From Schmidtea polychroa (Eukaryota): 64,000 nt of DNA. Position 1 is the first letter of the stretch; each line of letters begins with the position of its first letter. Positions 1 to 63,650 of the stretch are shown here, in pieces. The position numbers and the translations under genes were made by a program. The notes beneath the pieces are model-generated. The model did not search any database. It was not told the DNA's origin and saw nothing but the letters and a program-made list of their open reading frames with translations. The DNA is taken from the NCBI GenBank assembly GCA_044892525.1, contig CM097885.1, forward strand, positions 139,190,001 through 139,254,000, written 5' to 3'.

Positions 1-3000
1 AATTTAATTTAATTTTTAACCAATCAAATTTGAATAAATTAATATTAATTTAAATAATTTCACAATTTGAAATGAATTTAATTTATTTTAATTTTTAACA
101 ATTCAAATTTGAATAAATTATTAATAATTTAAATAATTTCACAATTTGAAATGAATTTAATTTTTTTTTAATTTTTATCCAATCAAATTTGAATAAATTA
201 TTATTAATTTAAATAATTATACAATTTGAAATGAATTTAATTAATTTTTATTTTTATCCAATCAAATTTGAATAAATAATTATTAATTTAAATAATTTCA
301 CAATTTGAAATGAATTTAATTTATTTTAATTTTTATCTAATCAAATTTGAATAATTTATTATTAATTTAAATAATTATACAATTTGAAATGAAATTAATT
401 TATTTTAATTTTTAACCAATCAAATTTGAATAAATTACTATTAATTTAAATAATTATACAATTTGAAATGAATTTAATTTATTTTAATTTTTATCCAATC
501 AAATTTGAATAAATTATTATTAATTTAAATAATTTCACAATTTGAAATGATTTTAATTTATTTTAATTTTTATCCAATCAAATTTGAATAATTTAATATT
601 AATTTAAATAATTATACAATTTGAAATGAAATTAATTTAATTTAATTTTTAACCAATCAAATTTGAATAATTTAATATTAATTTAAATAATTTCACAATT
701 TGAAATGAATTTAATTTATTTTAATTTTTAACAATTCAAATTTGAATAAATTATTAATAATTTAAATAATTTCACAATTTGAAATGAATTTAATTTTTTT
801 TTAATTTTTATCCAATCAAATTCGAATAAATTATTATTAATTTAAATAATTATACAATTTGAAATGAATTTAATTAATTTTTATTTTTATCCAATCAAAT
901 TTGAATAAATAATTATTAATTTAAATAATTTCACAATTTGAAATGAATTTAATTTATTTTAATTTTTATCCAATCAAATTTGAATAAATTATTATTAATT
1001 TAAATAATTTCACAATTTGAAATGATTTTAATTTATTTTAATTTTTATCTAATCAAATTTGAATAATTTATTATTAATTTAAATAATTATACAATTTGAA
1101 ATGAAATTAATTTATTTTAATTTTTAACCAATCAAATTTGAATAAATTACTATTAATTTAAATAATTATACAATTTGAAATGAATTTAATTTATTTTAAT
1201 TTTTATCCAATCAAATTTGAATAAATTATTATTAATTTAAATAATTTCACAATTTGAAATGATTTTAATTTATTTTAATTTTTATCCAATCAAATTTGAA
1301 TAATTTAATATTAATTTAAATAAATTCACAATTTGAAATGAAATTAATTTAAATTAATTTTTAACCAATCAAATTTGAATAAATTAATATTAATTTAAAT
1401 AATTTCACAATTTGAAATGATTTTAATTTATTTTAATTTTTATCCAATCAAATTTGAATAAATTATTATTAATTTAAATAATTTCACAATTTGAAATGAA
1501 TTTAATTTATTTTAATTTTTAACAATTCAAATTTGAATAAATTATTAATAATTTAAATAATTTCACAATTTGAAATGAATTTAATTTTTTTTTAATTTTT
1601 ATCCAATCAAATTTGAATAAATTATTATTAATTTAAATAATTATACAATTTGAAATGAATTTAATTAATTTTAATTTTTATCCAATCAAATTTGAATAAA
1701 TTAATATTAATTTAAATAATTTCACAATTTGAAATGAATTTAAATTTATTTTAATTTTTATCCAATCAAATTTGAATAAATTAATATTAATTTAAATAAT
1801 TTCACAATTTGAAATGATTTTAATTTATTTTAATTTTTATCCAATCAAATTTGAATAAATTATTATTAATTTAAATAATTTCACAATTTGAAATGAATTT
1901 AATTTATTTTAATTTTTATCCAATCAAATTTGAATAAATTATTATTAATTTAAATAATTATACAATTTGAAATGAATTTAATTAATTTTAATTTTTATCC
2001 AATCAAATTTGAATAAATTAATATTAATTTAAATAACTTCACAATTTGAAATGAATTTAAATTTATTTTAATTTTTATCCAATCAAATTTGAATAAATTA
2101 ATATTAATTTAAATAATTTCACAATTTGAAATGATTTTAATTTATTTTAATTTTTATCCAATCAAATTTGAATAAATTATTATTAATTTAAATAATTTCA
2201 CAATTTGAAATGAATTTAATTTATTTTAATTTTTATCCAATCAAATTTGAATAAATTATTATTAATTCAAATAATTTCACAATTTGAAATGATTTCAATT
2301 TATTTTAATTTTTATCTAATCAAATTTGAATAATTTAATATTAATTTAAATAATTATACAATTTGAAATGAAATTAATTTATTTTAATTTTTAACCAATC
2401 AAATTTGAATAAATTACTATTAATTTAAACAATTATACAATTTGAAATGAATTTAATTTATTTTAATTTTTATCCAATCAAATTTGAATAAATTATTATT
2501 AATTTAAATAATTTCACAATTTGAAATGATTTTAATTTATTTTAATTTTTATCCAATCAAATTTGAATAATTTAATATTAATTTAAATAATTATACAATT
2601 TGAAATGAAATTAATTTATTTTAATTTTTAACCAATCAAATTTGAATAAATTACTATTAATTTAAACAATTATACAATTTGAAATGAATTTAATTTATTT
2701 TTATTTTTATCCAATCAAATTTGAATAAATTAATATTAATTTAAATAATTTCACAATTTGAAATGAATTAAATTATTTTAATTATTATCCAATTAAATTT
2801 AAAATAATTAAATAAAATTTAAATAATTTCACAATTTGAAATGAATTTAATTTATTTTAATTTTTTTCATATCAAATTTGAATAAATTAATATTTATTTA
2901 AATAATTTCACAATTTGAAATGAATTTAATTTTTTTTTAATTTTTATCCAATCAAATTTGAATTAATTATTATTAATTTTAATAATTATACAATTTGAAA

Positions 3001-6000
3001 TGAATTTAATTTATTTTAATTTTTATCCAATCAAATTTGAATAAAATTTGAAATTTGAATAAAATTTTGAACAATTTGAAATAAATTTAATTTATTTTAA
3101 TTTTTATCCAATCAAATTTGAATAAATTAATATAAATTTAAATAATTTCACAATTTGAAATGATTTTAATTTATTTTAATTTTTATCTAATCAAATTTGA
3201 ATAATTTAATATTAATTTAAATAATTATACAATTTGAAATGAAATTAATTTATTTTAATTTTTAACCAATCAAATTTGAATAAATTACTATTAATTTAAA
3301 TAATTTCACAATTTGAAATGATTTATTTTTTTTTAATTTTTATCCAATCAAATTTGAATAAATTATTATTAATTTAAATAATTATACAATTTGAAATGAA
3401 TTTAATTAATTTTAATTTTTATCCAATCAAATTTGAATAAATTATTATTAATTTAAATAATTTCACAATTTGAAATGAAATTAAATTTATTTTAATTTTT
3501 ATCCAATCAAATTTGAATAAATTAATATTAATTTAAATAATTTCACAATTTGAAATGATTTTAATTTATTTTAATTTTTATCCAATCAAATTTGAATAAA
3601 TTATTATTAATTTAAATAATTTCACAATTTGAAATGAATTTAATTTATTCTAATTTTTATCCAATCAAATTTGAATAATTTATTATTAATTTAAATAATT
3701 ATACAATTTGAAATGAAATTAATTTATTTTAATTTTTAACCAATCAAATTTGAATAAATTAATATTAATTTAAATAATTTCACAATTTGAAATGATTTTA
3801 ATTTATTTTAATTTTTATCCAATCAAATTTGAATAAATTATTATTAATTTAAATAATTTCACAATTTGAAATGAATTTAATTTATTCTAATTTTTATCCA
3901 ATCAAATTTGAATAAATTATTATTAATTTAAATAATTTCACAATTTGAAATGATTTTAATTTATTTTAATTTTTATCTAATCAAATTTGAATAATTTATT
4001 ATTAATTTAAATAATTATACAATTTGAAATGAAATTAATTTATTTTAATTTTTAACCAATCAAATTTGAATAAATTACTATTAATTTAAATAATTATACA
4101 ATTTGAAATGAATTTAATTTATTTTAATTTTTATCCAATCAAATTTGAATAAATTATTATTAATTTAAATAATTTCACAATTTGAAATGATTTTAATTTA
4201 TTTTAATTTTTATCCAATCAAATTTGAATAATTTAATATTAATTTAAATAATTATACAATTTGAAATGAAATTAATTTAATTTAATTTTTAACCAATCAA
4301 ATTTGAATAAATTAATATTAATTTAAATAATTTCACAATTTGAAATGAATTTAATTTATTTTAATTTTTAACAATTCAAATTTGAATAAATTATTAATAA
4401 TTTAAATAATTTCACAATTTGAAATGAATTTAATTTTTTTTTAATTTTTATCCAATCAAATTTGAATAAATTATTATTAATTTAAATAATTATACAATTT
4501 GAAATGAATTTAATTAATTTTTATTTTTATCCAATCAAATTTGAATAAATAATTATTAATTTAAATAATTTCACAATTTGAAATGAATTTAATTTATTTT
4601 AATTTTTATCTAATCAAATTTGAATAATTTATTATTAATTTAAATAATTATACAATTTGAAATGAAATTAATTTATTTTAATTTTTAACCAATCAAATTT
4701 GAATAAATTACTATTAATTTAAATAATTATACAATTTGAAATGAATTTAATTTATTTTAATTTTTATCCAATCAAATTTGAATAAATTATTATTAATTTA
4801 AATAATTTCACAATTTGAAATGATTTTAATTTATTTTAATTTTTATCCAATCAAATTTGAATAATTTAATATTAATTTAAATAATTATACAATTTGAAAT
4901 GAAATTAATTTAATTTAATTTTTAACCAATCAAATTTGAATAATTTAATATTAATTTAAATAATTTCACAATTTGAAATGAATTTAATTTATTTTAATTT
5001 TTAACAATTCAAATTTGAATAAATTATTAATAATTTAAATAATTTCACAATTTGAAATGAATTTAATTTTTTTTTAATTTTTATCCAATCAAATTCGAAT
5101 AAATTATTATTAATTTAAATAATTATACAATTTGAAATGAATTTAATTAATTTTTATTTTTATCCAATCAAATTTGAATAAATAATTATTAATTTAAATA
5201 ATTTCACAATTTGAAATGAATTTAATTTATTTTAATTTTTATCCAATCAAATTTGAATAAATTATTATTAATTTAAATAATTTCACAATTTGAAATGATT
5301 TTAATTTATTTTAATTTTTATCTAATCAAATTTGAATAATTTATTATTAATTTAAATAATTATACAATTTGAAATGAAATTAATTTATTTTAATTTTTAA
5401 CCAATCAAATTTGAATAAATTACTATTAATTTAAATAATTATACAATTTGAAATGAATTTAATTTATTTTAATTTTTATCCAATCAAATTTGAATAAATT
5501 ATTATTAATTTAAATAATTTCACAATTTGAAATGATTTTAATTTATTTTAATTTTTATCCAATCAAATTTGAATAATTTAATATTAATTTAAATAAATTC
5601 ACAATTTGAAATGAAATTAATTTAAATTAATTTTTAACCAATCAAATTTGAATAAATTAATATTAATTTAAATAATTTCACAATTTGAAATGATTTTAAT
5701 TTATTTTAATTTTTATCCAATCAAATTTGAATAAATTATTATTAATTTAAATAATTTCACAATTTGAAATGAATTTAATTTATTTTAATTTTTAACAATT
5801 CAAATTTGAATAAATTATTAATAATTTAAATAATTTCACAATTTGAAATGAATTTAATTTTTTTTTAATTTTTATCCAATCAAATTTGAATAAATTATTA
5901 TTAATTTAAATAATTATACAATTTGAAATGAATTTAATTAATTTTAATTTTTATCCAATCAAATTTGAATAAATTAATATTAATTTAAATAATTTCACAA

Positions 6001-9000
6001 TTTGAAATGAATTTAAATTTATTTTAATTTTTATCCAATCAAATTTGAATAAATTAATATTAATTTAAATAATTTCACAATTTGAAATGATTTTAATTTA
6101 TTTTAATTTTTATCCAATCAAATTTGAATAAATTATTATTAATTTAAATAATTTCACAATTTGAAATGAATTTAATTTATTTTAATTTTTATCCAATCAA
6201 ATTTGAATAAATTATTATTAATTTAAATAATTATACAATTTGAAATGAATTTAATTAATTTTAATTTTTATCCAATCAAATTTGAATAAATTAATATTAA
6301 TTTAAATAACTTCACAATTTGAAATGAATTTAAATTTATTTTAATTTTTATCCAATCAAATTTGAATAAATTAATATTAATTTAAATAATTTCACAATTT
6401 GAAATGATTTTAATTTATTTTAATTTTTATCCAATCAAATTTGAATAAATTATTATTAATTTAAATAATTTCACAATTTGAAATGAATTTAATTTATTTT
6501 AATTTTTATCCAATCAAATTTGAATAAATTATTATTAATTCAAATAATTTCACAATTTGAAATGATTTCAATTTATTTTAATTTTTATCTAATCAAATTT
6601 GAATAATTTAATATTAATTTAAATAATTATACAATTTGAAATGAAATTAATTTATTTTAATTTTTAACCAATCAAATTTGAATAAATTACTATTAATTTA
6701 AACAATTATACAATTTGAAATGAATTTAATTTATTTTAATTTTTATCCAATCAAATTTGAATAAATTATTATTAATTTAAATAATTTCACAATTTGAAAT
6801 GATTTTAATTTATTTTAATTTTTATCCAATCAAATTTGAATAATTTAATATTAATTTAAATAATTATACAATTTGAAATGAAATTAATTTATTTTCATTT
6901 TTAACCAATCAAATTTGAATAAATTAATAATAATTAAAATAATTTCACAATTTAAAATGATTTTAATTTATTTTAATTTTTATCCAATCAAATTTGAATA
7001 AATTATTATTAATTTAAATAATTTCACAATTTGAAATTAATTTAATTTATTTTAATTTTTAACAATTCAAATTTGAATAAATTATTAATAATTTAAATAA
7101 TTTCACAATTTGAAATGAATTTAATTTTTTTTTAATTTTTATCCAATCAAATTTGAATAAATTATTATTAATTTAAATAATTATACAATTTGAAATGAAT
7201 TTAATTAATTTTAATTTTTATCCAATCAAATTTGAATAAATTAATATTAATTTAAATAATTTCACAATTTGAAATGAATTTAAATTTATTTTAATTTTTA
7301 TCCAATCAAATTTGAATAAATTAATATTAATTTAAATAATTTCACAATTTGAAATGATTTTAATTTATTTTAATTTTTATCCAATCAAATTTGAATAAAT
7401 TATTATTAATTTAAATAATTTCACAATTTGAAATGAATTTAATTTATTTTAATTTTTATCCAATCAAATTTGAATAAATTATTATTAATTTAAATAATTT
7501 CACAATTTGAAATGAATTTAATTTATTTTAATTTTTATCCAATCAAATTTGAATAAATTAATATAAATTTAAATAATTTCACAATTTGAGATGATTTCAA
7601 TTTATTTTAATTTTTATCTAATCAAATTTGAATAATTTAATATTAATTTAAATAATTATACAATTTGAAATGAAATTAATTTATTTTCATTTTTAACCAA
7701 TCAAATTTGAATAAATTACTATTAATTTAAATAATTATACAATTTGAAATGAATTTAATTTATTTTTATTTTTATCCAATCAAATTTGAATAAATTAATA
7801 TTAATTTAAATAATTTCACAATTTGAAATGAATTTAATTTATTTTAATTTTTATCCAATCATATTTGAAATAATTTAAATTAATTGAAATAATTATACAA
7901 TTTGAAATGAATTTAATTTATTTAAATTTTTATCCAATCAAATTTGAATAAATTAATATTAATTTAAATAATTTCACAATTTGAAATGAATTAAATTATT
8001 TTAATTATTATCCAATTAAATTTAAAATAATTAAATAAAATTTAAATAATTTCACAATTTGAAATGAATTTAATTTATTTTAATTTTTTTCATATCAAAT
8101 TTGAATAAATTAATATTTATTTAAATAATTTCACAATTTGAAATGAATTTAATTTTTTTTTAATTTTTATCCAATCAAATTTGAATTAATTATTATTAAT
8201 TTTAATAATTATACAATTTGAAATGAATTTAATTTATTTATTTTTATCCAATCAAATTTGAATAAAATTTGAAATTTGAATAAAATTTTGAACAATTTGA
8301 AATAAATTTAATTTATTTTAATTTTTATCCAATCAAATTTGAATAAATTAATATAAATTTAAATAATTTCACAATTTGAAATGATTTTAATTTATTTTAA
8401 TTTTTATCTAATCAAATTTGAATAATTTAATATTAATTTAAATAATTATACAATTTGAAATGAAATTAATTTATTTTAATTTTTAACCAATCAAATTTGA
8501 ATAAATTACTATTAATTTAAATAATTTCACAATTTGAAATGAATTTAATTTTTTTTTAATTTTTATCCAATCAAATTTGAATAAATTATTATTAATTTAA
8601 ATAATTTCACAATTTGAAATGATTTTAATTTATTTTAATTTTTATCCAATCAAATTTGAATAAATTATTATTAATTTAAATAATTTCACAATTTGAAATG
8701 AATTTAATTTATTTTAATTTTTATCCAATCAAATTTGAATAAATTATTATTAATTTAAATAATTTCACAATTTGAAATGATTTCAATTTATTTTAATTTT
8801 TATCCAATCAAATTTGAATAAATTAATATAAATTTAAATAATTTCACAATTTGAAATGATTTCAATTTATTTTAATTTTTATCTAATCAAATTTGAATAA
8901 TTTAATACTAATTTAAATAATTATACAATTTGAAATGATTTTAATTTATTTTAATTTTTATCCAATCAAATTTGAATAAATTATTATTAATTTAAATAAT

Positions 9001-10670
9001 TTCACAATTTGAAATGAATTTAATTTATTTTAATTTTTATCCAATCAAATTTGAATAAATTATTATTAATTTAAATAATTTCACAATTTGAAATGAATTT
9101 AATTTATTTTAATTTTTATCCAATCAAATTTGAATAAATTATTATTAATTTAAATAATTTCACAATTTGAAATGATTTTAATTTATTTTAATTTTTATCT
9201 AATCAAATTTGAATAATTTAATATTAATTTAAATAATTATACAATTTGAAATGAAATTAATTTATTTTCATTTTTAACCAATCAAATTTGAATAAATTAC
9301 TATTAATTTAAATAATTATACAATTTGAAATGAAATTAATTTATTTTAATTTTTATCTAATCAAATTTGAATAAATTATTATTTATTTAAATAATTTCAC
9401 AATTTGAAATGAATTTAATTTATTTTAATTTTTATCCAATCAAATTTGAATAAATTATTATTAATTTAAATAATTTCACAATTTGAAATGATTTTAATTT
9501 ATTTTAATTTTTATCCAATCAAATTTGAATAAATTATTATTAATTTAAATAATTTCACAATTTGAAATGAATTTAATTTATTTTAATTTTTATCCAATCA
9601 AATTTGAATAAATTATTATTAATTTAAATAATTTCACAATTTGAAATGAATTTAATTTATTTTAATTTTTATCCAATCAAATTTGAATAAATTATTATTA
9701 ATTTAAATAATTTCACAATTTGAAATGATTTTAATTTATTTTAATTTTTATCTAATCAAATTTGAATAATTTAATATTAATTTAAATAATTATACAATTT
9801 GAAATGAAATTAATTTATTTTAATTTTTATCCAATCAAATTTGAATTAATTATTTTTACTTTAAATAATTATACAATTTGAAATGAATTTAATTTATTTT
9901 AATTTTTATCCAATCAAATTTGAATTAATTATTTTTACTTTAAATAATTATACAATTTGAAATGAATTTAATTTATTTTAATTTTTATCCAATCAAATTT
10001 GAATAAAATTTGAAATTTGAATAAAATTTTGAACAATTTGAAATAAATTTAATTTATTTTAATTTTTATCCAATCAAATTTGAATAAATTAATATAAATT
10101 TAAATAATTTCACAATTTGAAATGATTTTAATTTATTTTAATTTTTATCTAATCAAATTTGAATAATTTAATATTAATTTAAATAATTATACAATTTGAA
10201 ATGAAATTAATTTATTTTAATTTTTATCCAATCAAATTTGAATAAATTACTATTAATTTAAATAATTTCACAATTTGAAATGAATTTAATTTATTTTAAT
10301 TTTTATCCAATCAAATTTGAATAAATTATTATTAATTTAAATAATTTCACAATTTGAAATGATTTTAATTTATTTTAATTATTATCCAATCAAATTTGAA
10401 ATAATTTAAATTAATTGAAATAATTATACAATTTGAAATGAATTTAATTTATTTTAATTTTTATCCAATCAAATTTGAATAAAATATTATCTATTTAAAT
10501 AATTTTACAATTTGTAATGAATTTAATTTATTTTAATTTTTATCCAATCAAATTTAAATAAATTAATATTAATTTAAATAATTTCACAATTTGAAGTGAA
10601 TTAAATTTATTTTAGTTATTATCCAATTAAATTTAAAATAATTAAATTAAATTTAAATAATTTCGAATAT
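1..10670. repeat. AT-rich tandem satellite, 79-bp monomer (~135 copies in the window, open at the left edge)
   Basis: Consensus AATTTAATTTATTTTAATTTTTATCCAATCAAATTTGAATAAATTATTATTAATTTAAATAATTTCACAATTTGAAATG repeats head-to-tail with a 79-80 bp period. Monomers degenerate at ~10480-10670. Confidence 0.98.
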
Positions 10671-20566: not shown

Positions 20567-21090
20567 ATGCAATTTATGCTGTTATTTAGTCGACAAGGTA
20601 AACTACGACTGCAAAAATGGTATACATCATATTCAGATAAAGTTAAAAAGAAAATTGCTAGAGACTTAATAACACAAATTCTTGCTAGAAAACCGAAAAT
20701 GTGTTCATTTCTAGAATGGAAAGATATGAAAATCGTATTTAAAAGGTATTAAATTACATAAAATTCCATTCTCGTGTTTAATATGTTTTGAAAAAAGGTA
20801 TGCAAGTCTTTATTTTTGTTGCGCTGTTGATAGAACAGAAAACGAACTAATAACATTGGAAGTTATACATAGATATGTAGAATTATTGGATAAATATTTT
20901 GGAAGTGTAAATGATTATTATTAATTATTTATAAATTAAGAAAATAATTTAGGTTTGTGAGTTAGATATAATTTTCAACTTTGAAAAAGCATATTTCATT
21001 CTGGATGAGTTTCTTATTGGTGGCCAAGTTCAAGAAACGAACAAAAAAATGGTTCTCAAAGCTATTTCAGCCCAAGATATGATACAAGAG
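20567..21090 (+). CDS. AP1S: AP-1 adaptor complex sigma subunit; exons 20567-20745, 20798-20906, 20953-21090; terminal exon not located
   Basis: Spliced product [19 protein letters not shown]...[16 protein letters not shown]...[37 protein letters not shown]...QE is clearly sigma-1 adaptin. Introns are GT-AG, 52 and 46 nt. Confidence 0.96.
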
Positions 21091-21549
21091 GTATTTAAAA
21101 CTAAATATCAAAAAGCAATAATGCTTAAAAATATATTCTTACATTATACAAATAAATATAAATTTAACAAAAATGTTCTGGAAATAATTTACATGTATAA
21201 CATGGATCTCATTGCAAGGACCGCACACAGCACACAGGATATGCCAATCACACACGCATACACTGACTCGTGTGTTTGTTTGTATTTTAATGCAATGTTG
21301 GCAATTGTGATTGATTTGATTTGTCAATCTTCAATTTGTCATTATTAAAATTTAACTTCGAAATTCCCCCGTTGCGATTAGTTATTGAGAAGTCTTGTTT
21401 AGCATTTCTAATTTATTAAATATTAAGTGTTAAAAATTTTTGATTTTTAATTATTTTTATATTTTATTGAAATTTATTATTTAATTTTTTTTAATAATAA
21501 TAATTATTATTTTAATTACTTTAATTCTTAATTAATATTTATTATTTTT

Positions 21550-21769: not shown

Positions 21770-24700
21770 TATAAGTAATCTAATAATTAAATTACCTAAT
21801 TAATAATTATTGTGAATGGTTTGATGCGCGTGTATATTATAATAATTATTGTATGACTGAAACATCTCTCATATTTCATGTTAATATTTGCATACTAGCC
21901 TTCGATCCTAAAAAGATAAATACTTGAACTGTTATGCCGTAAAATAGATATTAGAAAATTCTAGACTTTGAATTATTTAACATGGCGACCACAAACAGGT
22001 TAGGAATATCCCAATTGTTGCAAAATATTCCTCAACCAAAAACGTACTCAATTGGCGAAGATCTTTGAGAATTTATCATGTCAATAAAAAACTAGTTTGA
22101 TGTGATGAAACTAGATGAACAACAAAGAAATGTTGTTTGAGCATTTCATGTTCATTAATATATTCTAGACGAGAAAGAAAAGGTGAAATAAGATGAAAAA
22201 TATGATTTGAAAACAATTTGGAAAAAATATATAGAAAGGTCTTTGAAGCACAAGATTAAGCGGAAGATTTAAAAAAACGCTTTCAGCTATAGAAAAACCA
22301 ATTTTAGCTGTCGTCGACTACATCATTACTATAAAAAAAGCTTGAGTATGTAATGCGGCACATTGGATTGTGAAGAAAAGAAACTCAGCGTTAAGAAATT
22401 ACAGAGGAATTAATTAAAGCGAAACTTTACAAAGAAGAAAGGAAAGTTGACAATGAAGAAGAACAGAGAGGTCCAACGCGAAGTAAATACGTAAAATGTA
22501 TTTTGAATGAAGTGAATGAAAATGTAGCTGTAATGAATAAAAGGACTTATGCGAAGGTGGTTCATAATAATTACAACCCAATGAAGACTAAACCTTTTAT
22601 AAGGATAATAATTTCCAAAATAAAAAATGAAATTTTCGATAGATCTAATCGATTTCAATGCCAAATTCAATGTTGCAAAGAAGAAACTCATATCAGACAA
22701 AAATGGCAAGATATTAAATCTTGCAATTGCAATGGAAACGCACATTTACAATCTCACTGTTTTGACAGACATGCTAGACGAAACGAATTAAATTGATTTC
22801 AAAGACCCAACAATAACATACATTGTCAATTTTAGAAATTTCAATAAAGAAAGAAATTTTAGAAATTATGGAAATTCTAATAATAAGAAAAGTAATGAAA
22901 ACCTTTGGGAAATCAACACAATGATTGAAATTACAAACAGCGTGTCACAGCTTTGGATGATAAGAATTTACTAATGGAGGATCGATTTAATGACGAGTTA
23001 GAAAACTATCAAGCTCCAATCAAAGGGGACGTGTTAGGAGCTCTCAATATAAAAATAAAATGAATATAAAAATAATTTTAAGGATTTTAAGGATAAATAT
23101 TTAAATTTAATTAACTATGGTAATTAATTAATGATGGTAGACCATTTATCAAGATTAAAATGAATAATATAGAATTCAATTGCTTCTTAAATGCAGGAGC
23201 TAAAATTAGTGTTTTAAGTAAAAGAGTACTTGAATAAAAAATAATATCAAGAGTGAACATTATAAAAAGATAAGTTGTGCTAATGGGAGCGAATCAAATA
23301 TAATTGGTTATGGAAATATTGAAATTAATTATGAAAAATTGATTATAATTACAAATTCTTACACTTTAAATGAAATTTACCCTGAAATTATTTTAGTCAT
23401 TGATATATTAAACGACATGAAAATCAGATTAATGGAATTACATAATTATAATAATGTGGGAACATTACAAATGAATGTTTACTAAGCTTGGAAAGGGATT
23501 TTGGAAATAAAAGAATTAATATAAATGAATTTGAAAAATTGATTAAAATGAAAGGTATTTTGCCGTTACATGAGTTAATAGATAATAAGGAGCTTTTCAG
23601 ATATATTTATGTGGAGAAAATGGGATATAGTATTTTAATTCCATTGATTTAGTAAACGCGTACTATCAAGTTGGACTTGGAGAAGAATCAAAAGAAAAAA
23701 CAAGTTTTTCAACAAAATATGGACAGTATTGTTTTAATAGAATACCATTTGGCATAGCTGCAGCTCCATCAACATTTCAAAAACTCATGTACAGGTATAT
23801 CATAGTTGGAGTTATGATGTGGAAAGAAGCACTGATATATTTACATGATATTCTAATTTTTTCCAAGACGAAACATAAGAAACGTATTGAAACTTTTTTT
23901 AAAATAATTTGGGATTCAGGGTTGAAAATCAATTTCGATAAATATAAATTTTTAGTAACAGAATTAAAATTTCTCGGATACTTGAACAATACAGGTATTG
24001 AAACTGACCCTGAAAAAATTAGTACTATGATTAATTTTAGAAAACCTCATTGTGTAAAACACATCCGTAGTTCTTTAGGATTAACCAAATAATACCGGAA
24101 ATTTATTAAAAACTATTCAAGTATATCTCGACCTTTAGAAAAATTAATTATGTCTACTATATATAAGATTCGATGGTCTGATGAGTGTGAAAACGTTTTT
24201 CACAAACTTAAATATCAGATGGTAAACCCACCAATGTTAGAATATCCGGATTTTTGAAAAGAACTCATCCTTGATTCGATATCATAGGTGCCGTAATATA
24301 ACAAAGAAATAGTTTCAATAACGAAAACGTTATAACTTATGGTTCTAAGAGTTTGAATACTCTCGAGATTGGTTATTGTATATCAAGAAAAGAATCGTTA
24401 TCTGTATTTCACTTTACACAACATGTCAACCACTACAATTATGGAAGAAAACTCACACTACGCACTGATCACAAAGCTATAACATTTATGATGACAACAA
24501 AGAAACCGATAACAGCCAAATTTCAATATTGGATCAACTTTGTGAGTAGTTTGAATATGAAACTAGAATATCGCAAAGGTGAATTACATTCCAATGGCGA
24601 TGCATTATTTAGAATGGATAATAGACCGTGCTCATAGTGTAACCTCAATCATCCAGATGCAAAACTGACGAAAATGAGTGGCAAAATAAGGAAGAAGAAA

Positions 24701-25913: not shown

Positions 25914-27412
25914 TATTAATTGTTAAATAATTTCGACTTATGATTATTGTAATTAATTTATATATTTTTTAATATTTTAATATTTTATTAATTTTATTAA
26001 TTTTATTTATTTTGTTTTATTTTTTTTTATAATAATTAATATTTTTACAATTATTTATTATTTGTAAAATTATTATCATTATTTTTTATTTTTATTATTA
26101 ATTGTATTTTTAATCATTATACTAATAGGATGAATTAGCCTGCACTATGTTTCATGATACTAGCATAGGATAGTGAGTTATTATTTAATAATATCTTTGG
26201 TGAAGGGTTTTAATATTAGTTATTGTGAGTTTTGGTAGTTACAATAATAATATATTAATATACCGCAAGTATTGTCCAAAAAATAATTATTTTCAAACAA
26301 TGTATTTATTTTTGGTTTTGATAAAATTCGACTGTTGAGTAAATTTTTTATTGATATAATTTTTAATCATATATTTTAATTCTAAAATCAGTTTTAGAGA
26401 TTATTTGAGTCATTTTATTAATGAGTTAATTAACTAATTAATGAGCTAATTAATTAATTTGTTTGAATAAAAATAGGACATGATATAAAAAGATTCTGTG
26501 AAGAAAATGACAAAATATCAGTAGATAGTTTTAGTTGGGAATTTAATATTTCTTCAGTTACATAAATATCAATCTAAATGCCATAATGGTGTTTAATAAA
26601 TGTTATATATTTTAATAAAAATATAGCCATGAAGAATCTTTATAAGGAATTCCTGGATTTCTGTAAGGAACATTAATTTTTACTAGAACTTTTTTACCAA
26701 GTCTTTTAACTGTAAGAAATAATTTGTTTTTGATTTTGATCTTTTCCCGCTAGTTTCTTTTGATCTTTGTATGTTCAATATTTTAGTTATAGAATCGTCA
26801 CTTTAGTTTTTTTTAAGTGAATGATGACTAATTTATTATTTTATATGTCAATCGATTATTTTAAGCATTTTATTTTTTATTTTATTTTATTGAAAAGTTT
26901 TAAGCTTTTTAATGAGATTATTTTTATTTATTTTTTCTAGTGAACATTTCTTTACAAAAATTGAAATATTAATTAAAAATATTTTAAATAAACATTTAAT
27001 AATCAATTTATTTAAATAAAAATAATTAAATATATGACTTTAATTAAAAAATTTTAAATTAAAAATGACATCTTTTTCATTAGATCTAATTTTTTTGTTC
27101 TTGGGTCAGGACATGTAATTTTCTGTGGAGAATAGGACCAGTTTGAAAACTATAAATGTATTACATACAATATACACCAACTTCATAAACGAAACACTTT
27201 GGCACACAGTAATACACATATTAAATCAAAGCTTCACTTGATTAAATAACCATATATCTAATAAAATCAAAACCTTCATCTTGACTGGCAAACGCTTTTG
27301 TATTACTTAAGATATTATTTACAGACCCACTGGCCTAAGACACGAAGCAACTTACATATGAAAGCACAATTAACTTGCATCATTCGACTTGAGTAACACT
27401 TAAAACATTATA

Positions 27413-27650
27413 TAAAACAATAAAGTGATAATTTAAGCCTTTTGCTGTGAATAATGTATTTAATGAAAAAATTTTCGACTATAAGATAGTCCTTGTCAAA
27501 TAGATTGTCAAATAGACTGAAATCGAAAAAATTAAACTTTATAAAAATTGTGTATGATTTGAATTTATTGATCTAGTTTTATCAAAATTAAGAGTGAATT
27601 TTATATTAAAGAAATTTATATTAAATTTTCTAGAATTTTGGACTGCTTAA
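27413..27650 (-). mobile_element. Penelope-like element 3'/pLTR relic carrying a variant hammerhead motif
   Basis: Shares ~85 bp with the copies at 39332 and 41884. The minus strand contains UUGACAA-G-GACUA(UCUUA)UAGUC-GAAA. Upstream frameshifted KILENL/INFFNIKFTLNFDK weakly resembles a PLE GIY-YIG C-terminal tail. Confidence 0.5.
27456..27506 (-). ncRNA. Putative minimal type-I hammerhead ribozyme, U3:A8 core variant
   Basis: Core UUGACAA (27499-27493), 5-bp stem II, GAAA (27476-27473), 2-bp stem III, UUC triplet with predicted cut at 27465/27464. Stem I is weak. Confidence 0.5.
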
Positions 27651-39331: not shown

Positions 39332-39470
39332 GTAGCAGCATTTATTAAATTTTAAAACAATTAAATGATAATTTAAGCCTTTTGTGGAGAATAATTTGTA
39401 TTAAATATATTATTCGCATCAAAAGGCTTATATTATCATTTAATTGTTTAAAAATAATAATAATAATAAT
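39332..39470. repeat. Fold-back (hairpin) copy of the 27413/41884 family followed by (TAA)n
   Basis: Arms 39350-39395 and ~39409-39454 are reverse complements (AAACAATTAAATGATAAT..TAAGCCTTTTG). Confidence 0.85.
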
Positions 39471-39728
39471 AGCCACTGATTTTTTTAATACTTTTTATTA
39501 ATGATATTTTAATTAATTACATCAAAAATTTGTTAATTGTAAACATTCAAATCAAAGCTTTATGAAAGCAATAAGAAAAACATTAAAATTCTTAAACAGT
39601 TGATTTAACAATTCGTTGTTTAAATCATCAAGATCTCACTTTAAATTTATTGAATAATAATGTTGAAAACATGTGAAAGGATTTATATTTAATATTTGTT
39701 GTAAAAATATAAAAATATTTATCTATAC

Positions 39729-39977
39729 AAGTGGTGGCCAACCCAAATCAATCGAAGGGTCAAATTTTCGGAAAAATACTATCACGGGCCACAATAAATT
39801 CATTTAAATAAATATAACTCGTTTTTACGATTTAAGTAAACTTAGAATCAATTTTTTAAATAAAAAACATGCTTAATTCGAATATGAATTCTAAAAAAGA
39901 CAATTGTTGATTTGATGTTTAAAATTGTGTCCGGGCCACATCAAAACGCTTCGCGGGCCACCGTTTGGCCATGGCTG
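39729..39977. mobile_element. hAT Charlie/Buster-type MITE, 249 bp
   Basis: TSD ATCTATAC on both sides (nnnTAnnn), TIRs AAGTGGTGGCCAA / TTGGCCATGGCTG, and internal CGGGCCAC motifs. Confidence 0.88.
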
Positions 39978-40959
39978 ATCTATACTATGGATTATATAGT
40001 CTAAAGAGAAATAATGAAGGAGAAAGTGAAAAACATACATAAATTAACGTTGAAATGAATTGAAAATTTCATTGATTATTTTGAAATTGTTTTTAAAAAT
40101 TTTAATTTTTTACAATTACAAGACATATTTATGCGTATTTTATTAATTGAAAATCGCAAATGAAAAGAAATAAAACAATTTTGATCATCAGATTTTGTTT
40201 ATGCCAAAATTTAAGAAGAATATAATAATTTTCTTTTCTTCCGAAGAAAAAGTGATGTAATTGTCACCAACATATTGAATGTATGTAGATCCCTAAGAAA
40301 TATCGTTATATATTTTATGGAATATATATAATGGAATATTTTAATATTTTTGGTTATAAATAACTACTGTCTATTATTTAAACAAACTGGTCATTCCTTT
40401 TACCGAGATCCACTTTTGATTAATAATTAGTCGAAAAAGTAATTCAATAATATCAGGTAGTTTTTTCAATTTTTTAAATAAATTTATTTAAGAAATTAAA
40501 ATTTGGCTACATAATTTAAACGACTTAAAAATCCTATAAAACAAGTCGAATATGAGTATTTATTTTAAATTTATTTCTTAGTCATATAATTCCGGCTATG
40601 TTTAATGTTTTCGCTTGTTTTGATAATTACTATTTATTTATATTTATTTTTAATTAGTATATTTGAGGAAAATATATTTTAACACATATGAGGTTGTAAA
40701 AGGGAGTAAGACTTTTAAAGACACGATGGAATAGTGGATTATATATTTTACACTGATATCTAAAACTATGTTAATTATTTTCGGTTAAAGTTCATTTTCA
40801 AAAAAAATATATTTTCCAAAGAAGCTAATAATTTTTCATTTGCCTTTTTTTGATATTCCAATCTTCACAAACCATTTTGAAATAGATTTACTAATTTATT
40901 TTTATTTATTTATTTTTTTTTATTTATTATTTATTTATTAATTTATAAATATTTATTGT

Positions 40960-41130: not shown

Positions 41131-41883
41131 CAACAACAACCAGAAGTGGTTATTTCAGTGACTTGAAATGTGCACTATTACTACTAAACGGGTTTATTTT
41201 ATTTTCAGTTTCAAAAGATTTGAAGCACGTATATTTATGGTCTTTTATATAATTTGACCATAAATGTGATGTTTCCTTAAAAATCCCGAATTTTGTTATA
41301 CTTTGCAAATATATTAATTTCATCTGAGCATTATAGATAAAAATTTTAAGCATATAAGCTAAGCTTAAGAATAAATTCCTCATTGTAATTTGCAACTTCT
41401 TACATGACCCACCACTGTGTCAGAACTTACCCTTTTGCACCTGTGATCAAAATCATTCGTGATTAAATCGATAATAAATATTCACGTCTATTTAGTTATT
41501 TTAATTATTTCAAATCCTATGGAGAGTTAATTCTCTTTAAACAGTTAACCTGGAATTAAAAAAAATTATCAGTAAAATTCTTAATTATTTTGGTCCCCTT
41601 TGATCTGTTTGAAATTTAACATCTTTAATACTGGATTAAGACAACATCAAAAATTTGTGTTGAGTAAGATAAAGAATAGTTGATCTTTTGTCAAACTAAA
41701 ATTAAGATAAATTGGCCATTTTACTTAATTACTGAAAGAATAAGAACAATTATAGACAATTTTTGATTAAGATAGAATATAGAACCGCGATTAAATATTA
41801 TAAATGCACTCGGTTTCTTATATTCTTCTTTTTCTTCGTCATTATTATTATTATTATTATTAGTATAAAGTGATGATTTCTTG

Positions 41884-42060
41884 GTAGCAGCATTTATTAT
41901 TTAAAACAATAAAATGATAATTTAAGCCTTTTGCTGCAAATAATGTATTTAATGAAAAATTTTCGACTATAAGATAGTCCTTGTCAAGGACTATCTTATA
42001 GTCGAAAATTTTTTCATTAAATACATTATTTGCAGCAAAAGGCTTAAATTATCATTTTAT
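41884..42060. repeat. 152-bp near-perfect palindrome (41909-42060) of the PLE-like family, flanked by (ATT)n on both sides
   Basis: 75/76-bp arms around a single T at 41984, differing by one indel. (ATT)n runs at ~41841-41861 and ~42063-42105. Confidence 0.95.
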
Positions 42061-42061
42061 G

Positions 42062-42105
<44 letters not shown>

Positions 42106-44699: not shown

Positions 44700-47600
44700 G
44701 TTTGATTTCTTAAATTAATAACATCCATAATATTTCATAACAAAACTACATTTTCAAAAACAACATCTAATCTCTCTTATTTAAACAATCTCTGTTTTCG
44801 CAAGCATGAGTTAATTGAATAGGGAATATTCGTACACAAGCATTCAATAAATATTTTATACTTTAATTTTCAATCATTCTTAAATATGTTTAATTTATTA
44901 TTTTAATTATAATCTACTTTTACTATATTACTTAAATCTATTTACAACTGGAAATTAAATACTTATTCTATTTAATTACTTTCACTTCACCCTTTTTTAA
45001 AAAGCTTTAGCCACTCTATGTTTCTTATAAGCCTTTTTCCATTCTCAAATATATCCAATATATCTATCATCGTCTTTGTTGTTATCATTTCTTTTTACCA
45101 GCACTATTTCTCCTACTTCGAATTTTCTTTCTGTTATTGTGTTAAAACCCATATTCTCAACCGACATATTTGTAGACCATTCTTGATATATTCTTTTTCC
45201 AAAAACTCTTTCACTTGGCGTTTGTCTAATTGTTTTCTGAAATGTAGAATTTAACATAAACTCGAACTTCGACTTAACATAAACTCTACCCAATTCTTGT
45301 GATCTTTATCTTTTAGAGTGATATGGATTGTTCTGAATTGTCTTTCGATTAGGACGTTTGCTGAATGATGGTACGGGATTGAAAATATAATTTTTTATGT
45401 TGTGCTCCTTCATTAAATTATCTTATCCATTGCTTTGCTCTCAAATGCTTTACCCCTGCCACAATGTAGAAATCTCGGCGCATCAAATTTTAAAATCCGA
45501 TTATTTTGTAACATTGTTATAACGGTTTTTTCGTCTTGTGATTTCATTGCGTGTAGTGCCACATATTTACTAAAACTATCGATAATTCCTATTATATATC
45601 TCATTCCATACTGACTTTGTATTAGTGAACCACAAGAATCTCTAAATATTGTTTCAAATAAACCTGGTTCTGGCATTATGCAAATTTTCTCTCTAGTTCA
45701 TGTCGTTGTAGTTTTCCTCTTTTGACAATTTTCACAACTTTGAACTACGTCTTGGATCGTTCGTTTCATGTGTCTCATTGAAAAATTATTTGACACATAT
45801 TTCTCAATTTTTATTGGACCAGCATGACACAGTTTCTTATTATACTTTTTAATGAATTCAATTCTTTTTCATTCGGAATCCATATTTTATTGTTTTCTGT
45901 CAATATTACTCCATTCTTTATTATGAATTTGTTACCCTCCTTTTGTTTTATGTTGTTTATGATTTCTGTAATTTCTTTTGAATTCTTTTGCCATTCTTGT
46001 TCTGGGTTTTCTGTCATTATTGCCAAAAGTTTCGTTTTCAGTTTACCTGTCTTTGGATTAAGATGGATGGTTAGGCATTGAACGCATACATTCACTTCTT
46101 GACAATGCATCTGGATTGCAATGTTCTTCTTCTTTCCTAAATTGAAATTCTATTTTCAAACTAATTAAATAATTTATCCATGTCTGGAATTGTGGAGTGA
46201 TAGGTTTCTTTGTCTTCATCATATATGTTATGGTTTTATGATCCGTGCGTAGTATAAATCTTTTCCCATATAGGTGATGTTTAAGATGATTTTTGAAATA
46301 ATATATTGCTAAAAGTTCTTTTCTTGTTATGCAATAACCCACCTCGTGTTTCGACATAGCATGCGATCCATAAGCAATAACATTTTCCTTTCCAGAACTA
46401 TCTGTCTGTGACAAAACAGAGCCAATACGATTGAAGCTAGCGACCGTATTTAATATGAAAGTTTTTGTAAAATCAGGAGACCCTAATATTGGTGTATTAA
46501 CCCAGATAAATCTACTGTCCTTTTAAAAGGACAGTAGGTAATCTGTTACAAATTAAAATATTTTATCATATGAGAACATTATTTTTGATACAATTTTTTA
46601 TTATGGCGAGACTAGATGGTATAGTAATGACAATGCATATTTTTTTTATTAGTTGGCATTGGGCTTTTGTACCAATATAACCTAAGAATTTGTAAAAATA
46701 TTATCAAATATAAGAAAGAAATGTTTCAGGAATAACTGGGTTAATCAGTTTCGTAAATGCACTTTCACATTCTTCTGTCCAAATCAACTTCTTTTCTTTG
46801 CTTGCACAAAACTTTTCTAAATGTTTTGAATCTTCTGTATAATCCTTTATACATTTTCTATAGTAATTGGTTAATCCTAAAAAGCTTCTTAATTTCTTAA
46901 CACGTTTGGGTCTTTCAAATTCTTTGACTGCTTTAATTTTTTCTTCTTCTGTTTTTACTCCATCGTTGCTGATTATATGTCCGAGAAACTTTACTTCATT
47001 TTTCAAGAATCGACATTTTGATGGACTAATTTTCAGTCCTGCCTGTTCTATTTTCTTGAAAACATTTTCGATATTTTCGTAGTGTTCTTTTAATTCTTTT
47101 GAAAATATAAGGATATCGTCCAAATACACTGTCGCTATTTTCCAATTAAGTTCGCCTAATACCATGTGCATTAATTTTTGAAAGGTTGCCGGAGCTGCTG
47201 CTATTCCAAATGGCATCCGGTTAAAACAATATTGTCTGTTTTTAGTAGAAAATGCTGTCTTCAGTCTCGATTTTATATCAAGATATACTTGGTAGTACGC
47301 ATTACCTAAATCAATTGTGCTGAAATATTTTGCACCTCCCGACGTATCTAATAATTCATTTGTATTTGGGATTGGAAATATCGGTCGTTCTGTGACATTG
47401 TTTAGTGCTCTAAAATCCAGACAAATTCGTACATCATTTTAATCTTTTTTCTTTACACACACTAAAGAAGTGTTCCATAGTGATTTACATTCTTTAATGA
47501 TTTCAAATTTTTCCATTTCTTTTATATTTTCATCAATCTTTCTAATCAAATGGGCTGTCTGTCGCCTTGGATTAATCACGATAGGTCTTCCTGATGTTAG

Positions 47601-49000
47601 AATATCACGAGTTATTAAATTTGTCTTACCAACATCCCATTTGTGTTTCATAAAACTTGACTCAAATTTTCTGCATAGCTTTCTAACATTACCACCTTTA
47701 CATTGGTTACATTCACTCAATTCTTTCACGTTTTTTATTCAAGCAATAGTTACATCGTCATTTAATAAACTGCCCTTCATCTTTAATATTATTTCGAATT
47801 TTCTCAAGGAGTCTATTCCTCCAATTACCTTTGATGAATTCTCTTTGGCCGCAATATATTCAATTATTCTCGTCTCTTTCGTTCCCACTATTTGAACTGC
47901 AATATTTACCTTTCCTACTATAGATTCCGGTGACTCATTTGCACATCTTAAGTTAACATAAAATGTCTAAATTAAACTTTCCTATCTTTTCTAATACATT
48001 TTCATCAATAACACTGATATTTGCTCCTGTATCTAATAAACAGCATACTTCATTCTCATTGATCAATAATGTGACACTTGGTCTACCATTTAATTTATTA
48101 TATTTAATTATATTATTATTATAATTTATATCATTAATATTACAAACATACTCTATAACATTTCCAAAACCATCTAACCTCAATCCATTATTACACCAAT
48201 CACTATAAATATCTGCATCGGAGACGCATTTACAATTACCATCATTACTTATGTATTCACATTTCTCATTATTTAATACATGTAAATAATCATCATACAA
48301 ACAGTCATCATTCCCCATTCAACATATAACTCATACTTACTGCAGTGCTCCGATTACCTCCTCTTGGGTATTGATTTTCCTGTTTTTCTTCTATTGCCGC
48401 AACTAATATTGTAGGTTTCTGAAATTTCTGCCATTTCCTTGGAATTTTCCTCGTATGTTTTCTTGTTCATTTTCTCTTATATCTCTGAAATTGTTTCTTA
48501 ATTGAAAGCACTGGTGTTTGAAATGTCCTGCTCTGTCACATTGATAACATTTAACATTTGGAAATTCTGCTCTTCTATGGCCTTCTTCATGACATACCCG
48601 GCATCTGAACTTTGGCCTATTGTTTCTTTGGAATTCTTGATTATCAAAATTAGATTGTTTGTTCGGATATTCTCGATTCTGTTTTGGTTCGCTGAATGTA
48701 TTTCTTCTAGGCATATCGTTATGTCTGTGTAATATTGGTCTTACTGGAATATTTACAGCTTTTTTTACCATATCCGCGTATATCGTTTCAGTTCCCACAA
48801 CTGCCATCGAGTCACTGTTTCGATTTAACTCTTTTACTTAGTTTTTCGTGTTTTTTAATTCTCTTTTTCATTTCGTTCACTGATTTATATTCATTTAATC
48901 TCAATGAAAGCTCTTTTTCATTTAACTCGTGTTTCAGAATTCGTTTTGATAATTTCTTAATTATTGGAAAATATGAACTTTCACATTATCATTGATTTCT
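44700..49000 (-). mobile_element. Ty3/Gypsy LTR retrotransposon, decayed, 5' LTR not found
   Basis: gag with twin CCHC (CYQCDRAGHFKHQC), protease LLDTGANISV, RT PFGIAAAPATFQKLM/YLDD, RNase H LRTDHK and integrase IIDSFSKY/GRGKAF. PPT AAAAAAGGGTGAAG at ~45000-44987. The LTR extent on the left is approximate. Confidence 0.92.
46501..46740. mobile_element. TTAA-flanked 240-bp MITE-like insertion inside Gypsy pol
   Basis: TTAA duplicated at 46497-500 and 46741-44, with CCCAG...CTGGG ends. Removing the insert restores the KLIN-TPILGSPDF reading of pol. Confidence 0.8.
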
Positions 49001-60999: not shown

Positions 61000-63650
61000 A
61001 TGGCAGATAGAAAAAAATTATCTGGCGCACAAAATAGAAAACGTAAAGCTGAAAAGAAAAATGAAGAAAAAAGCAAGAAGGTGCTTTTCTGAAATATATT
61101 TGTCGTCAACAATCACAAGATAAAAATCGAAATGAAATGACTCCGAGAAAACAAGTATACTGCAATTTGGAAGAGCAAATGGATAGGAACTCTACAACTA
61201 GAAATGCAGAGGTGCCTATTTTGACTGAGTTTCCACATACGAATGTGGAAGAAACTATAGAAGAAACTGAAGTTGAAACAATTGAAGAAACTGTTGAAGA
61301 ACCTATAGAAGAAATTGTATTAGAAACTTTAGAAGACACTGAAGAAATTTTAATTAATGAAACTTTGGAAATATTAGAAAGCGTAAATTCGAGTCTTGAT
61401 TATAGTGATCCGGCAACTTGGTTAAATTCACATGACTTACGTTCTGGCCGTTTGAGGCAAATTTTGGTTGAACACGGACCAGAACAAATTGAAGAATTTG
61501 ATTTTCCTCAAAATGAGAGCCATAGAAAATTTTCAATGAATTTTTATAGAAGGAGACTTGCAAATGGAGAAGAAATGCGGCGTCATTGGCTACAGTATTC
61601 CAAAACAACTAATTCGGCTTTCTGCTTTTGTTGCAAAATTTTTAATAATAACCAGCGTGTAATACATCTCTCCGATAAAGGATCAAGCGATTGGAAAAAT
61701 ATGTCTGTAATTTTAGAAAGACATGAGAAAAATAAGGATCATTTAATTAATTTTCAAACTTGGAAGGAGCTAGAATTGCGTTTAAAAAAGAATAAAACTA
61801 TTGACCAGGATAATTTGCGTCTCATAAAACAAGAAGAGAGACACTGGCAACAAGTCTTAGAGCGTCTTATAGGTCTAGTTAAAGTGCTTGCTACGCAAAA
61901 TATTGCATTTCGCGGAAGCAATGAAAAATTGTATTCTCCTGGAAATGGAAACTTCCTTAGCTTTGTAGAATATTTGGCCTCTTTTGATCCAATTATGGGT
62001 GAGCATCTTCGCAGAATAAAGAACAATGAAACACAAGTTCATTATTTGGGAAAAGATATTCAGAATGAGTTAATACAACTTTTATCTAAGAGTATTAAAA
62101 CAAAAATTTTAAAATCGATTTCCATGGCTAAATATTTTTCAATAATCCTGGATTGCACACCAGACGTTAGCCATACTGAACAAATGACGTTGATTATTCG
62201 TTTTGTCCATACAAATACAGAAAATTGTGATTTAGATCCCATATGCATAAGAGAACATTTTTTGGGATTTGTGAAACTAACAGATACAACTGGTGCTGGT
62301 ATGACCGATGAAATCGTTCAGATGTTAGCAGATATGTCATTACCTATTGAGAACTTGCGTGGCCAAGGATACGATAATGGTAGCAATATGAAAGGCAAAG
62401 AAAATGGCGTGCAACGGCGAATTCTGAATCTAAATCCACGAGCACTATTTGTTCCTTGTTCTGCGCATTCTTTGAATCTGGTTGTTAATGACGCTGTAAG
62501 CTGTTGTTTAGATGCTACATCATTTTTTATGTTAGTGCAACGAATATATGTCTATTTTGCCGCTTCAACACGTCGATGGGAAGTTTTAAAACGTCATGCT
62601 TCAAACTTGACAGTGAAGCCATTGAGCGATACAAGATGGGAGAGCCGAATCGATGCCCTTAAACCTCTACGCTATCAGCTAAGTAAAGTTATTGCTGCAC
62701 TTATTGATATTTTTCAAGATACTTCTCAAACAGGAGTTTCTGGTAATACTTCACGTATAGAAGCACAGGGCCTTGCTAAAGCTATTTCGAATTTCGAGTT
62801 TGTAGTTTCTGTTATTATCTGGTATGATATTCTTTTCAACATAAATATTACAAGCAAACAACTTCAATCTGAGAAAATTAATATTCAAGATGCTATGAAG
62901 CTACTAGAAGATACCAAAAAATTTCTATTCAACTCCCGAAATGATGAAGGTTTTGAAAGAATATTGGTAGATGCGCGAGAACTTGCTGAAGAATCAGAAA
63001 TTTCCCCAATCTTTAAACAAACTCAGCGTATCAGAAAACAAAAAAAACAGTTCGAATATGAAGCCAACGATGAGCCCATTCAGAACCCAAAAGAAAAATT
63101 TAAGATCAGCTTTTACTTCGCAGTTTTGGATAGAGCTTTAAAATCTGTTGAGCAAAGATTCACCCAAATGTCAACGATAAATTCAACATTTGGATTTCTA
63201 TACAACATACATAATTTGCAATATATTTCGTCAAAGAAAATATTAGAGGATTGTCTTAAACTGGAAAATTTTTTACGGCACGATGATTCTAAAGATATTG
63301 ATGGTACAGATTTATTGAACGAATTGATATTTATAGCTAGACATATTCCAAAAAACTTATTGCCGGAAGATGTACTTAATTATATTTGTAAAAATAATAT
63401 AGTGGACAGCGTTCCAAATATATTTGTTGCTTTGCGAATTTTATTAACCCTACCAGTTTCTGTGGCAAGCGGTGAACGAAGCTTTTCGAAGCTTAAACAG
63501 ATCAAAACATATATAAGATCTACAATGTCACAAGAACGGCTTGTGGGATTAGCAATATTGTCGATTGAACACGAAATGGCGCGTGATATAGATACGAAGT
63601 TGCTGCTTGAAGATTTCGCTAAACTAAAAGCACGAAAAATTAAATTTTAA
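61000..63650 (+). CDS. hAT transposase (TTF-type Zn finger, DDE, dimerization domain); 837-aa ORF 61137-63650, probable true start 61000 with one frameshift
   Basis: AFCFCCKIF/RHEK..H Zn finger, ILDCTPD, GQGYDNGSNM, CSAHSLNL, TRWESR and SVASGERSFSKLK. MADRKKLSGAQNRKRK at 61000 joins in frame if one base is added at the A6 run ~61068-73. Confidence 0.93.

Follow-up and report, generated by a model that had tools for sequence, protein, structure and literature searches.

A short head-to-head insertion of a Penelope-like element in Schmidtea polychroa joined at a predicted hammerhead cleavage site

The analyzed stretch, hereafter the window, comprises 64,000 nucleotides of Schmidtea polychroa contig CM097885.1 (assembly GCA_044892525.1, positions 139,190,001 to 139,254,000). 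Positions 1-10664 are occupied by 135 copies of a 79-nt satellite with a GC content of about 10%, each unit of which contains CCAAT and an internal inverted repeat. Gypsy-like fragments of reverse transcriptase (RT), RNase H and gag are located at 23631-24092, 46058-47438 and 48403-48837, and the regions 23643-24614 and 46096-47315 are related to each other in inverted orientation. A high-copy MITE-like element at 39729-39977 is bordered by an 8-nt target duplication (39721-39728 and 39978-39985), being hAT-like in this respect. The forward strand also carries an 861-aa open frame at 61065-63650, which we take to resemble an intact hAT-type transposase, and an exon at 20953-21348 presumably resembling the small (sigma) subunit of an adaptor complex.

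The region 39332-39470, which is the subject of this work, contains an inverted repeat with 47-nt arms (39349-39395 and 39409-39455) that are 89% complementary, mismatch at 5 of the 47 positions and are separated by a 13-nt loop. The hairpin at 39349-39455 is a real feature: its DNA fold has an energy of -34.2 kcal/mol and a z-score of -10.75, and none of 200 shuffles equaled it. The parts of this copy and its two relatives in the window are listed in Table 1. The first-pass annotation had described the copy as lacking the hammerhead core, and no core is indeed present in 39332-39470. The (TAA)n run had been read there as the tail of the element; it is instead the target microsatellite at the end of the shorter arm, the element tail being located on the other arm. 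The copy had also been thought to border an assembly gap, but its own locus in the genome (L040) is continuous and contains no N.

Table 1 Parts of the hairpin copy and related copies found in the window
Feature	Position	Strand	Description
Tail-bearing arm	39332..39395	-	Element 3' end, beginning near +15/+16 (numbered from the predicted cut) and running into the tail; extends left beneath the N stretch; top score against old-subfamily references
AT microhomology, 2 nt	39394..39395	.	Head-to-head junction; overlap of 2 at genome locus L040
Tail-less arm	39394..39455	+	Old-subfamily sense copy, from predicted cut +1 to the putative second priming site
Unpaired center, 13 nt	39396..39408	+	Belongs to the longer-reaching arm
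(AAT)6 target microsatellite, not element tail	39453..39470	+	Six AAT units in the sequence; family flanks
Sister insertion, young subfamily	41862..42062	.	Both arms reach -35 and meet within the self-complementary TTGTCAA (41981-41987); carries the U3:A8 core used in the first-pass annotation
Third, partial young-subfamily copy	27407..27499	-	Sequence relative in the window

For the copy at 41884-42070, the 781-Mb genome contains 527 candidates, of which the 40 that were scored are 93-100% identical, and the genome holds about 1,027 short inverted copies with a gap of 24-116 nt, as well as kilobase-long inverted pairs up to 99.6% identical. One locus elsewhere in the genome, L247, has the layout pLTR-ORF-pLTR, preceded at the 5' side by an inverted copy of 345 nt, and contains an 856-aa frame with RVT_1 (2.1e-14) and C-terminal GIY-YIG (1.2e-5) matches, the hairpin copy itself being a non-coding stub. 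RT frames of the family contain a DKG motif and a linker with three Cys residues, and a 3' UTR of about 400 nt separates the end of the RT and GIY-YIG ORF from the ribozyme-like core downstream. The tail of L247 consists of the first codons of the ORF, the ATG of which lies at +61 from the predicted cut, and the tail-to-ORF junction gave 142 matches. Of 159 inverted copies, 152 have a tail arm that ends at +83 to +90 and 147 an opposite arm that ends at +45 to +61, the two ends differing by about 30-38 nt; the tail of 30-40 nt is one-sided except in a single copy which has both tails. Left and right flanks have strings of at least 11 nt in common in 20 of the 31 copies with non-microsatellite left flanks, while the hairpin copy sits in (AAT)n, so that its own target duplication is unreadable.

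Judged by its predicted protein and repeat layout, the family is an endonuclease-bearing (EN+) Penelope-like element (PLE) with a single RT/GIY-YIG ORF, pLTRs, an inverted 5'-truncated copy, a target duplication and an AT-rich target. The copy at 39332-39470 is a new family member with a known layout, as had been recognized in the first pass from the inverted pLTR arrangement of Penelope elements. A MITE was rejected as the termini differ by the tail and the arm length is not fixed but varies from about 40 nt to kilobases. A non-LTR retrozyme was likewise rejected, the units being head-to-head and continuous with the 3' UTR of an RT gene rather than head-to-tail ribozyme units. A second, distinct Penelope-like family with RT and GIY-YIG was seen beside or inside copies at L009, L065, L183 and L220, and at L261-L270 a very short inverted stub, which begins at +34, spans the tail and enters the ORF by about 45 nt, is repeated within a segmentally repeated region.

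Two subfamilies can be told apart around the predicted cut. The old one reads UUC/AUUUGUAUUAAAU and has 6 nt extra past this point compared with UUC/AUUAAAU in the young one. The sense arm of the hairpin copy aligns to the old subfamily from cut +1 over 62 nt with 3-4 mismatches, scoring 108-112 against old-subfamily copies and 88 against the young subfamily; both arms score highest against the old subfamily, and a 21-mer from the center of the copy has 1,347 matches in the genome at one mismatch or fewer. By these alignments the copy is a member of the older subfamily. The start of the sense arm had been set at 39400, where ATTAAATA is located (39400-39407), by comparison with the wrong subfamily, which put it 6 nt off; since the old subfamily has the 6 extra nucleotides after the cut, the start of this arm moves to 39394, which is cut +1, and the proposed coincidence of the turn with the predicted cut holds precisely. 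A young-type palindrome shortened by deletion between two of its ATT repeats was dropped as an explanation once the old subfamily had been found.

The motif of the family fits a minimal type I U3-A8 hammerhead in its core boxes and helix II and is a predicted ribozyme. The U3/A8 core is present in 189 of 196 segments, with variation at position 7, and the pairs of helix II are kept, pair 2 being A-U in the young subfamily but mostly G.U in the old one. In 168 of the 196 segments an A occupies position 2.1, opposite A1.1, which leaves helix I without its first pair; past this A.A mismatch, five weak pairs would be possible in the old subfamily and two in the young one, as read from the sequences. 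An Rfam scan of positions 10500-64000 returned five weak matches, none above the gathering score, and no hammerhead up to an E-value of 5.

As the first-pass annotation had suggested a histogram of fold-back points and 5' ends over all copies, in which a peak at UUC/A would support cleavage, the junctions were mapped across the family. The tail-anchored inverted copies comprise 75 with a gap of 24-54 nt (short), 184 of 55-85 nt (mid) and 768 of 86-116 nt (long), a few loci falling in two bins, and a far arm stopping at +1 can fall only in the first bin. Junctions were mapped in 71 distinct short, 60 of the 184 mid and 30 of the 768 long copies, of which 57, 37 and 22, respectively (116 in total), passed a clean-fit filter; the exact-match anchors favor young copies and under-sample old ones. 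The far arm starts at +1 in three of the 71 short copies (L032, L131 and L040), i.e. about 0.3% of 1,027, with L040 mapping to +1 yet failing the strict clean-fit filter, and in none of the 37 mid and 22 long copies mapped cleanly. It lies at -3/-4 in 31 of the 57 clean short copies (TTTT/AAAA microhomology; these arms include C17) and at -36 to -41 in 9 of the 37 mid and 16 of the 22 long ones. In a set of 87 arms not selected by length, which leaves out 14 arms chosen for a break at +1, 42 end at -1 to -35, 20 at -36 to -41, one at -42 to -91, 23 beyond -92 and one at +1. The 70 loci in which the ORF start is preserved have 52 distinct, widely spread 5' ends, of which a single one is at +1 and retains rearranged core sequence upstream. 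Nine of the 52 (L285-L287, L298, L299, L311, L315, L316, L327, L328) lie at +48 to +57, just before the ATG, at what would be the second priming site.

Old-subfamily arms were also searched for the loss of the C at -1. The 86 arms found are mostly point changes, and about 12 are true breaks at +1 (8 distinct among 30 loci read and about 4 by eye from 56 rows); in about five of these the partner arm crosses the cut to -18 to -37. True breaks at +1 amount to about 1-2% of an extrapolated 800 arms, compared with a per-base mean of 1.6% over -1 to -35 (15 of 27 arms in the unselected set), and apparent starts at +1 are also inflated where a C precedes an AT-rich run. A break control at -1 gave 20 matches with one or two true breaks, an unfair control as a start there depends on a rare match to C, and the young subfamily with a purine at -1 gave 44 matches with about 10 true breaks by eye, a count lacking a matched control and not used as a test. 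In summary of the inverted short, mid and long copies, the unselected arms and the ORF-bearing 5' ends, there is no peak at the predicted cut +1. The peak lies instead upstream of the core, which suggests that most templates were uncut, and the junction in the hairpin copy does not serve as the independent support for U3:A8 cleavage that had been seen in it.

The upstream limit of the short copies is sharp, with 20 of the 87 arms ending at -36 to -41 and only one in the next 50 nt. It coincides with a CCA that is conserved between the two subfamilies, and a CCAAT sequence kept in all five references is situated at -114, about 70 nt upstream of it. On this sequence context the limit at -41 likely marks the transcription start. 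A splice acceptor as the source of the limit is disfavored, as the CAG of the young subfamily is CAT in the old one, so that the candidate acceptor AG at -41/-40 is not kept there, unlike the CCA. A second cluster of 5' ends was observed at -104 to -127, near the CCAAT box.

The relative length of the arms bears on how they were made. Under self-priming of the cDNA, as assumed in the first pass, the tail-bearing arm should be the longer one in every copy. Of the 116 cleanly mapped copies, however, 54 have the longer arm on the tail side and 60 on the other, with 2 ties (p = 0.64 against 50:50), and in the hairpin copy, where the tail-bearing arm stops at +15/+16, it is the tail-less arm that reaches farther. 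Since either arm can be the longer one, the split speaks against simple self-priming and favors the end-to-end joining of two cDNAs, each primed at the target. The family shows target duplications around whole units and no strand bias, and its joins carry overlaps of 1-6 nt or short inserts.

We consider it probable that 39332-39470 is a short head-to-head insertion of the older subfamily made by two-ended priming in an (AAT)n tract, with the two cDNAs joined via the 2-nt microhomology and the join falling at the predicted cut by chance; coincidence is suggested by the near absence of sister copies with a join at +1. A staggered cut in the (AAT)n tract would provide two primers, from each of which reverse transcription would start at one of two sites in the RNA, and the two short cDNA ends may then be joined by microhomology end-joining, possibly with the participation of polymerase theta. 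The usual template would be uncut RNA, on which cDNAs could run up to the transcription start at about -41, and priming in the first pLTR of a transcript starting there would produce the mass of short stubs.

Alternatively, the U3:A8 hammerhead might have cut the template, applied here to the old subfamily, with the cDNA reaching the cut end and then folding back or being joined there. The exact start of the far arm at +1, the same endpoint in three further old-subfamily inverted copies (L032, L334 and L340), the core conserved in nearly all segments with helix II kept through the A-U to G.U change, and the weak 5-bp helix I that the old subfamily could form after the A.A mismatch are consistent with it. 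Cleavage should, though, leave a peak at +1, whereas one of 52 ORF-bearing 5' ends is found there, the dozen or so true old-subfamily breaks do not exceed the per-base average, about five of them have a partner that crosses the cut, and A2.1 facing A1.1 removes the first pair of helix I, which together make ribozyme cutting quite unlikely as the origin of this copy. A longer palindromic insertion that later lost its center, through slippage or cruciform repair at the 2-nt direct repeat, would predict the same microhomologies and the same lack of strand bias, and the copy is older and differs from the references at several sites; we nevertheless find it unlikely, because very young copies are already asymmetric (up to 345 nt vs about 3.1 kb in L247) and the sharp limit at -41 requires a template end and not random deletion.

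An assembly or chimeric-read artifact adjoining the gap is very improbable. In its favor, the check by reads that had been called for did not confirm the hairpin: none of the contigs from four runs spans it, and contig cover nearby is confined to the right flank at 39480-39756 in runs X1 and X2. Loose contig ends stand before 39394 in all four runs, with a consensus ending in TTTC, the family sequence upstream of the cut. The absence of a gap at the genome locus, the divergence of the arms, unlike that of a fresh fold-back chimera, and the roughly one thousand sister copies, many with target duplications, speak against an artifact.

We hold as an evenly balanced proposal that the thousand stubs are a genomic record of PLE integration, comprising two-site priming on uncut RNA, cDNAs extending to a start at about -41 (70 nt past CCAAT) and joining by microhomology. 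If true, this record would explain inverted pLTRs without self-priming and would show the hammerhead to be idle in transposition in vivo. Taken as first read, the hairpin would have pointed to cutting of the transposition template by a Penelope hammerhead in vivo, to which the copy-wide count lends no support. The young insertions of the family are numerous enough for a test between two-ended priming and self-priming and for a prediction of the RNA 5' end within a few bases. A literature search covering few subscription papers found no published account of a test of junctions at +1 or of twin-primed inverted Penelope copies.

Among known systems, the U3-A8 hammerheads such as that of Cercyon from Schistosoma mansoni, as described in the accessible part of PMC4209133, have the U3-A8 core in common with the present motif, including the extra base between positions 9 and 10.1, G10.1-C11.1, a long helix II and a palindromic helix III region. 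They differ from it in the base of helix I, where both subfamilies here have A.A, and from the copy at 39332-39470 in that the latter holds no core at all. The promoter of Penelope from D. virilis is also located in the pLTR, but it is TATA-less and internal and comes with an intron (PMC2377424, the portion available).

A biochemical parallel to the proposed pathway is offered by the purified protein of Poseidon, a PLE from Anolis carolinensis, which according to the accessible text of PMC11167929 cuts ATT on both strands and extends both of them. Synthesis begins at a pair of neighboring internal sites, which delimit the tail, and inactivation of the ribozyme leaves insertion unimpaired, cleavage not being needed. 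In the same source the main substrate is uncut RNA, as in the pathway proposed here, and no RNA-seq ends are reported at the ribozyme site. The Pen2, Pen2a and Pen3a elements of Adineta vaga, as far as the sections seen of PMC3846280 and PMC8557442 go, resemble the family in having a head-to-head 5'-truncated copy, a tail of 30-40 nt with the first codons on one arm, a target duplication that flanks the entire unit, joins with palindromes or microhomology, and AT-rich simple-repeat targets. Compared with those in the available part of PMC3846280, the present copy is a solo stub of about 150 nt without an ORF, at least about 1,000 of which are present. Self-priming was proposed for the inverted copies in that part, and the 54:60 split of the arms fits two primed cDNAs better. 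The stubs are also similar to animal non-LTR retrozymes, as characterized in the accessible portion of bioRxiv 10.64898/2026.07.22.740005, in being short, non-coding and related to hammerhead-bearing pLTRs, but they are the ends of a coding element and have no head-to-tail ribozyme array.
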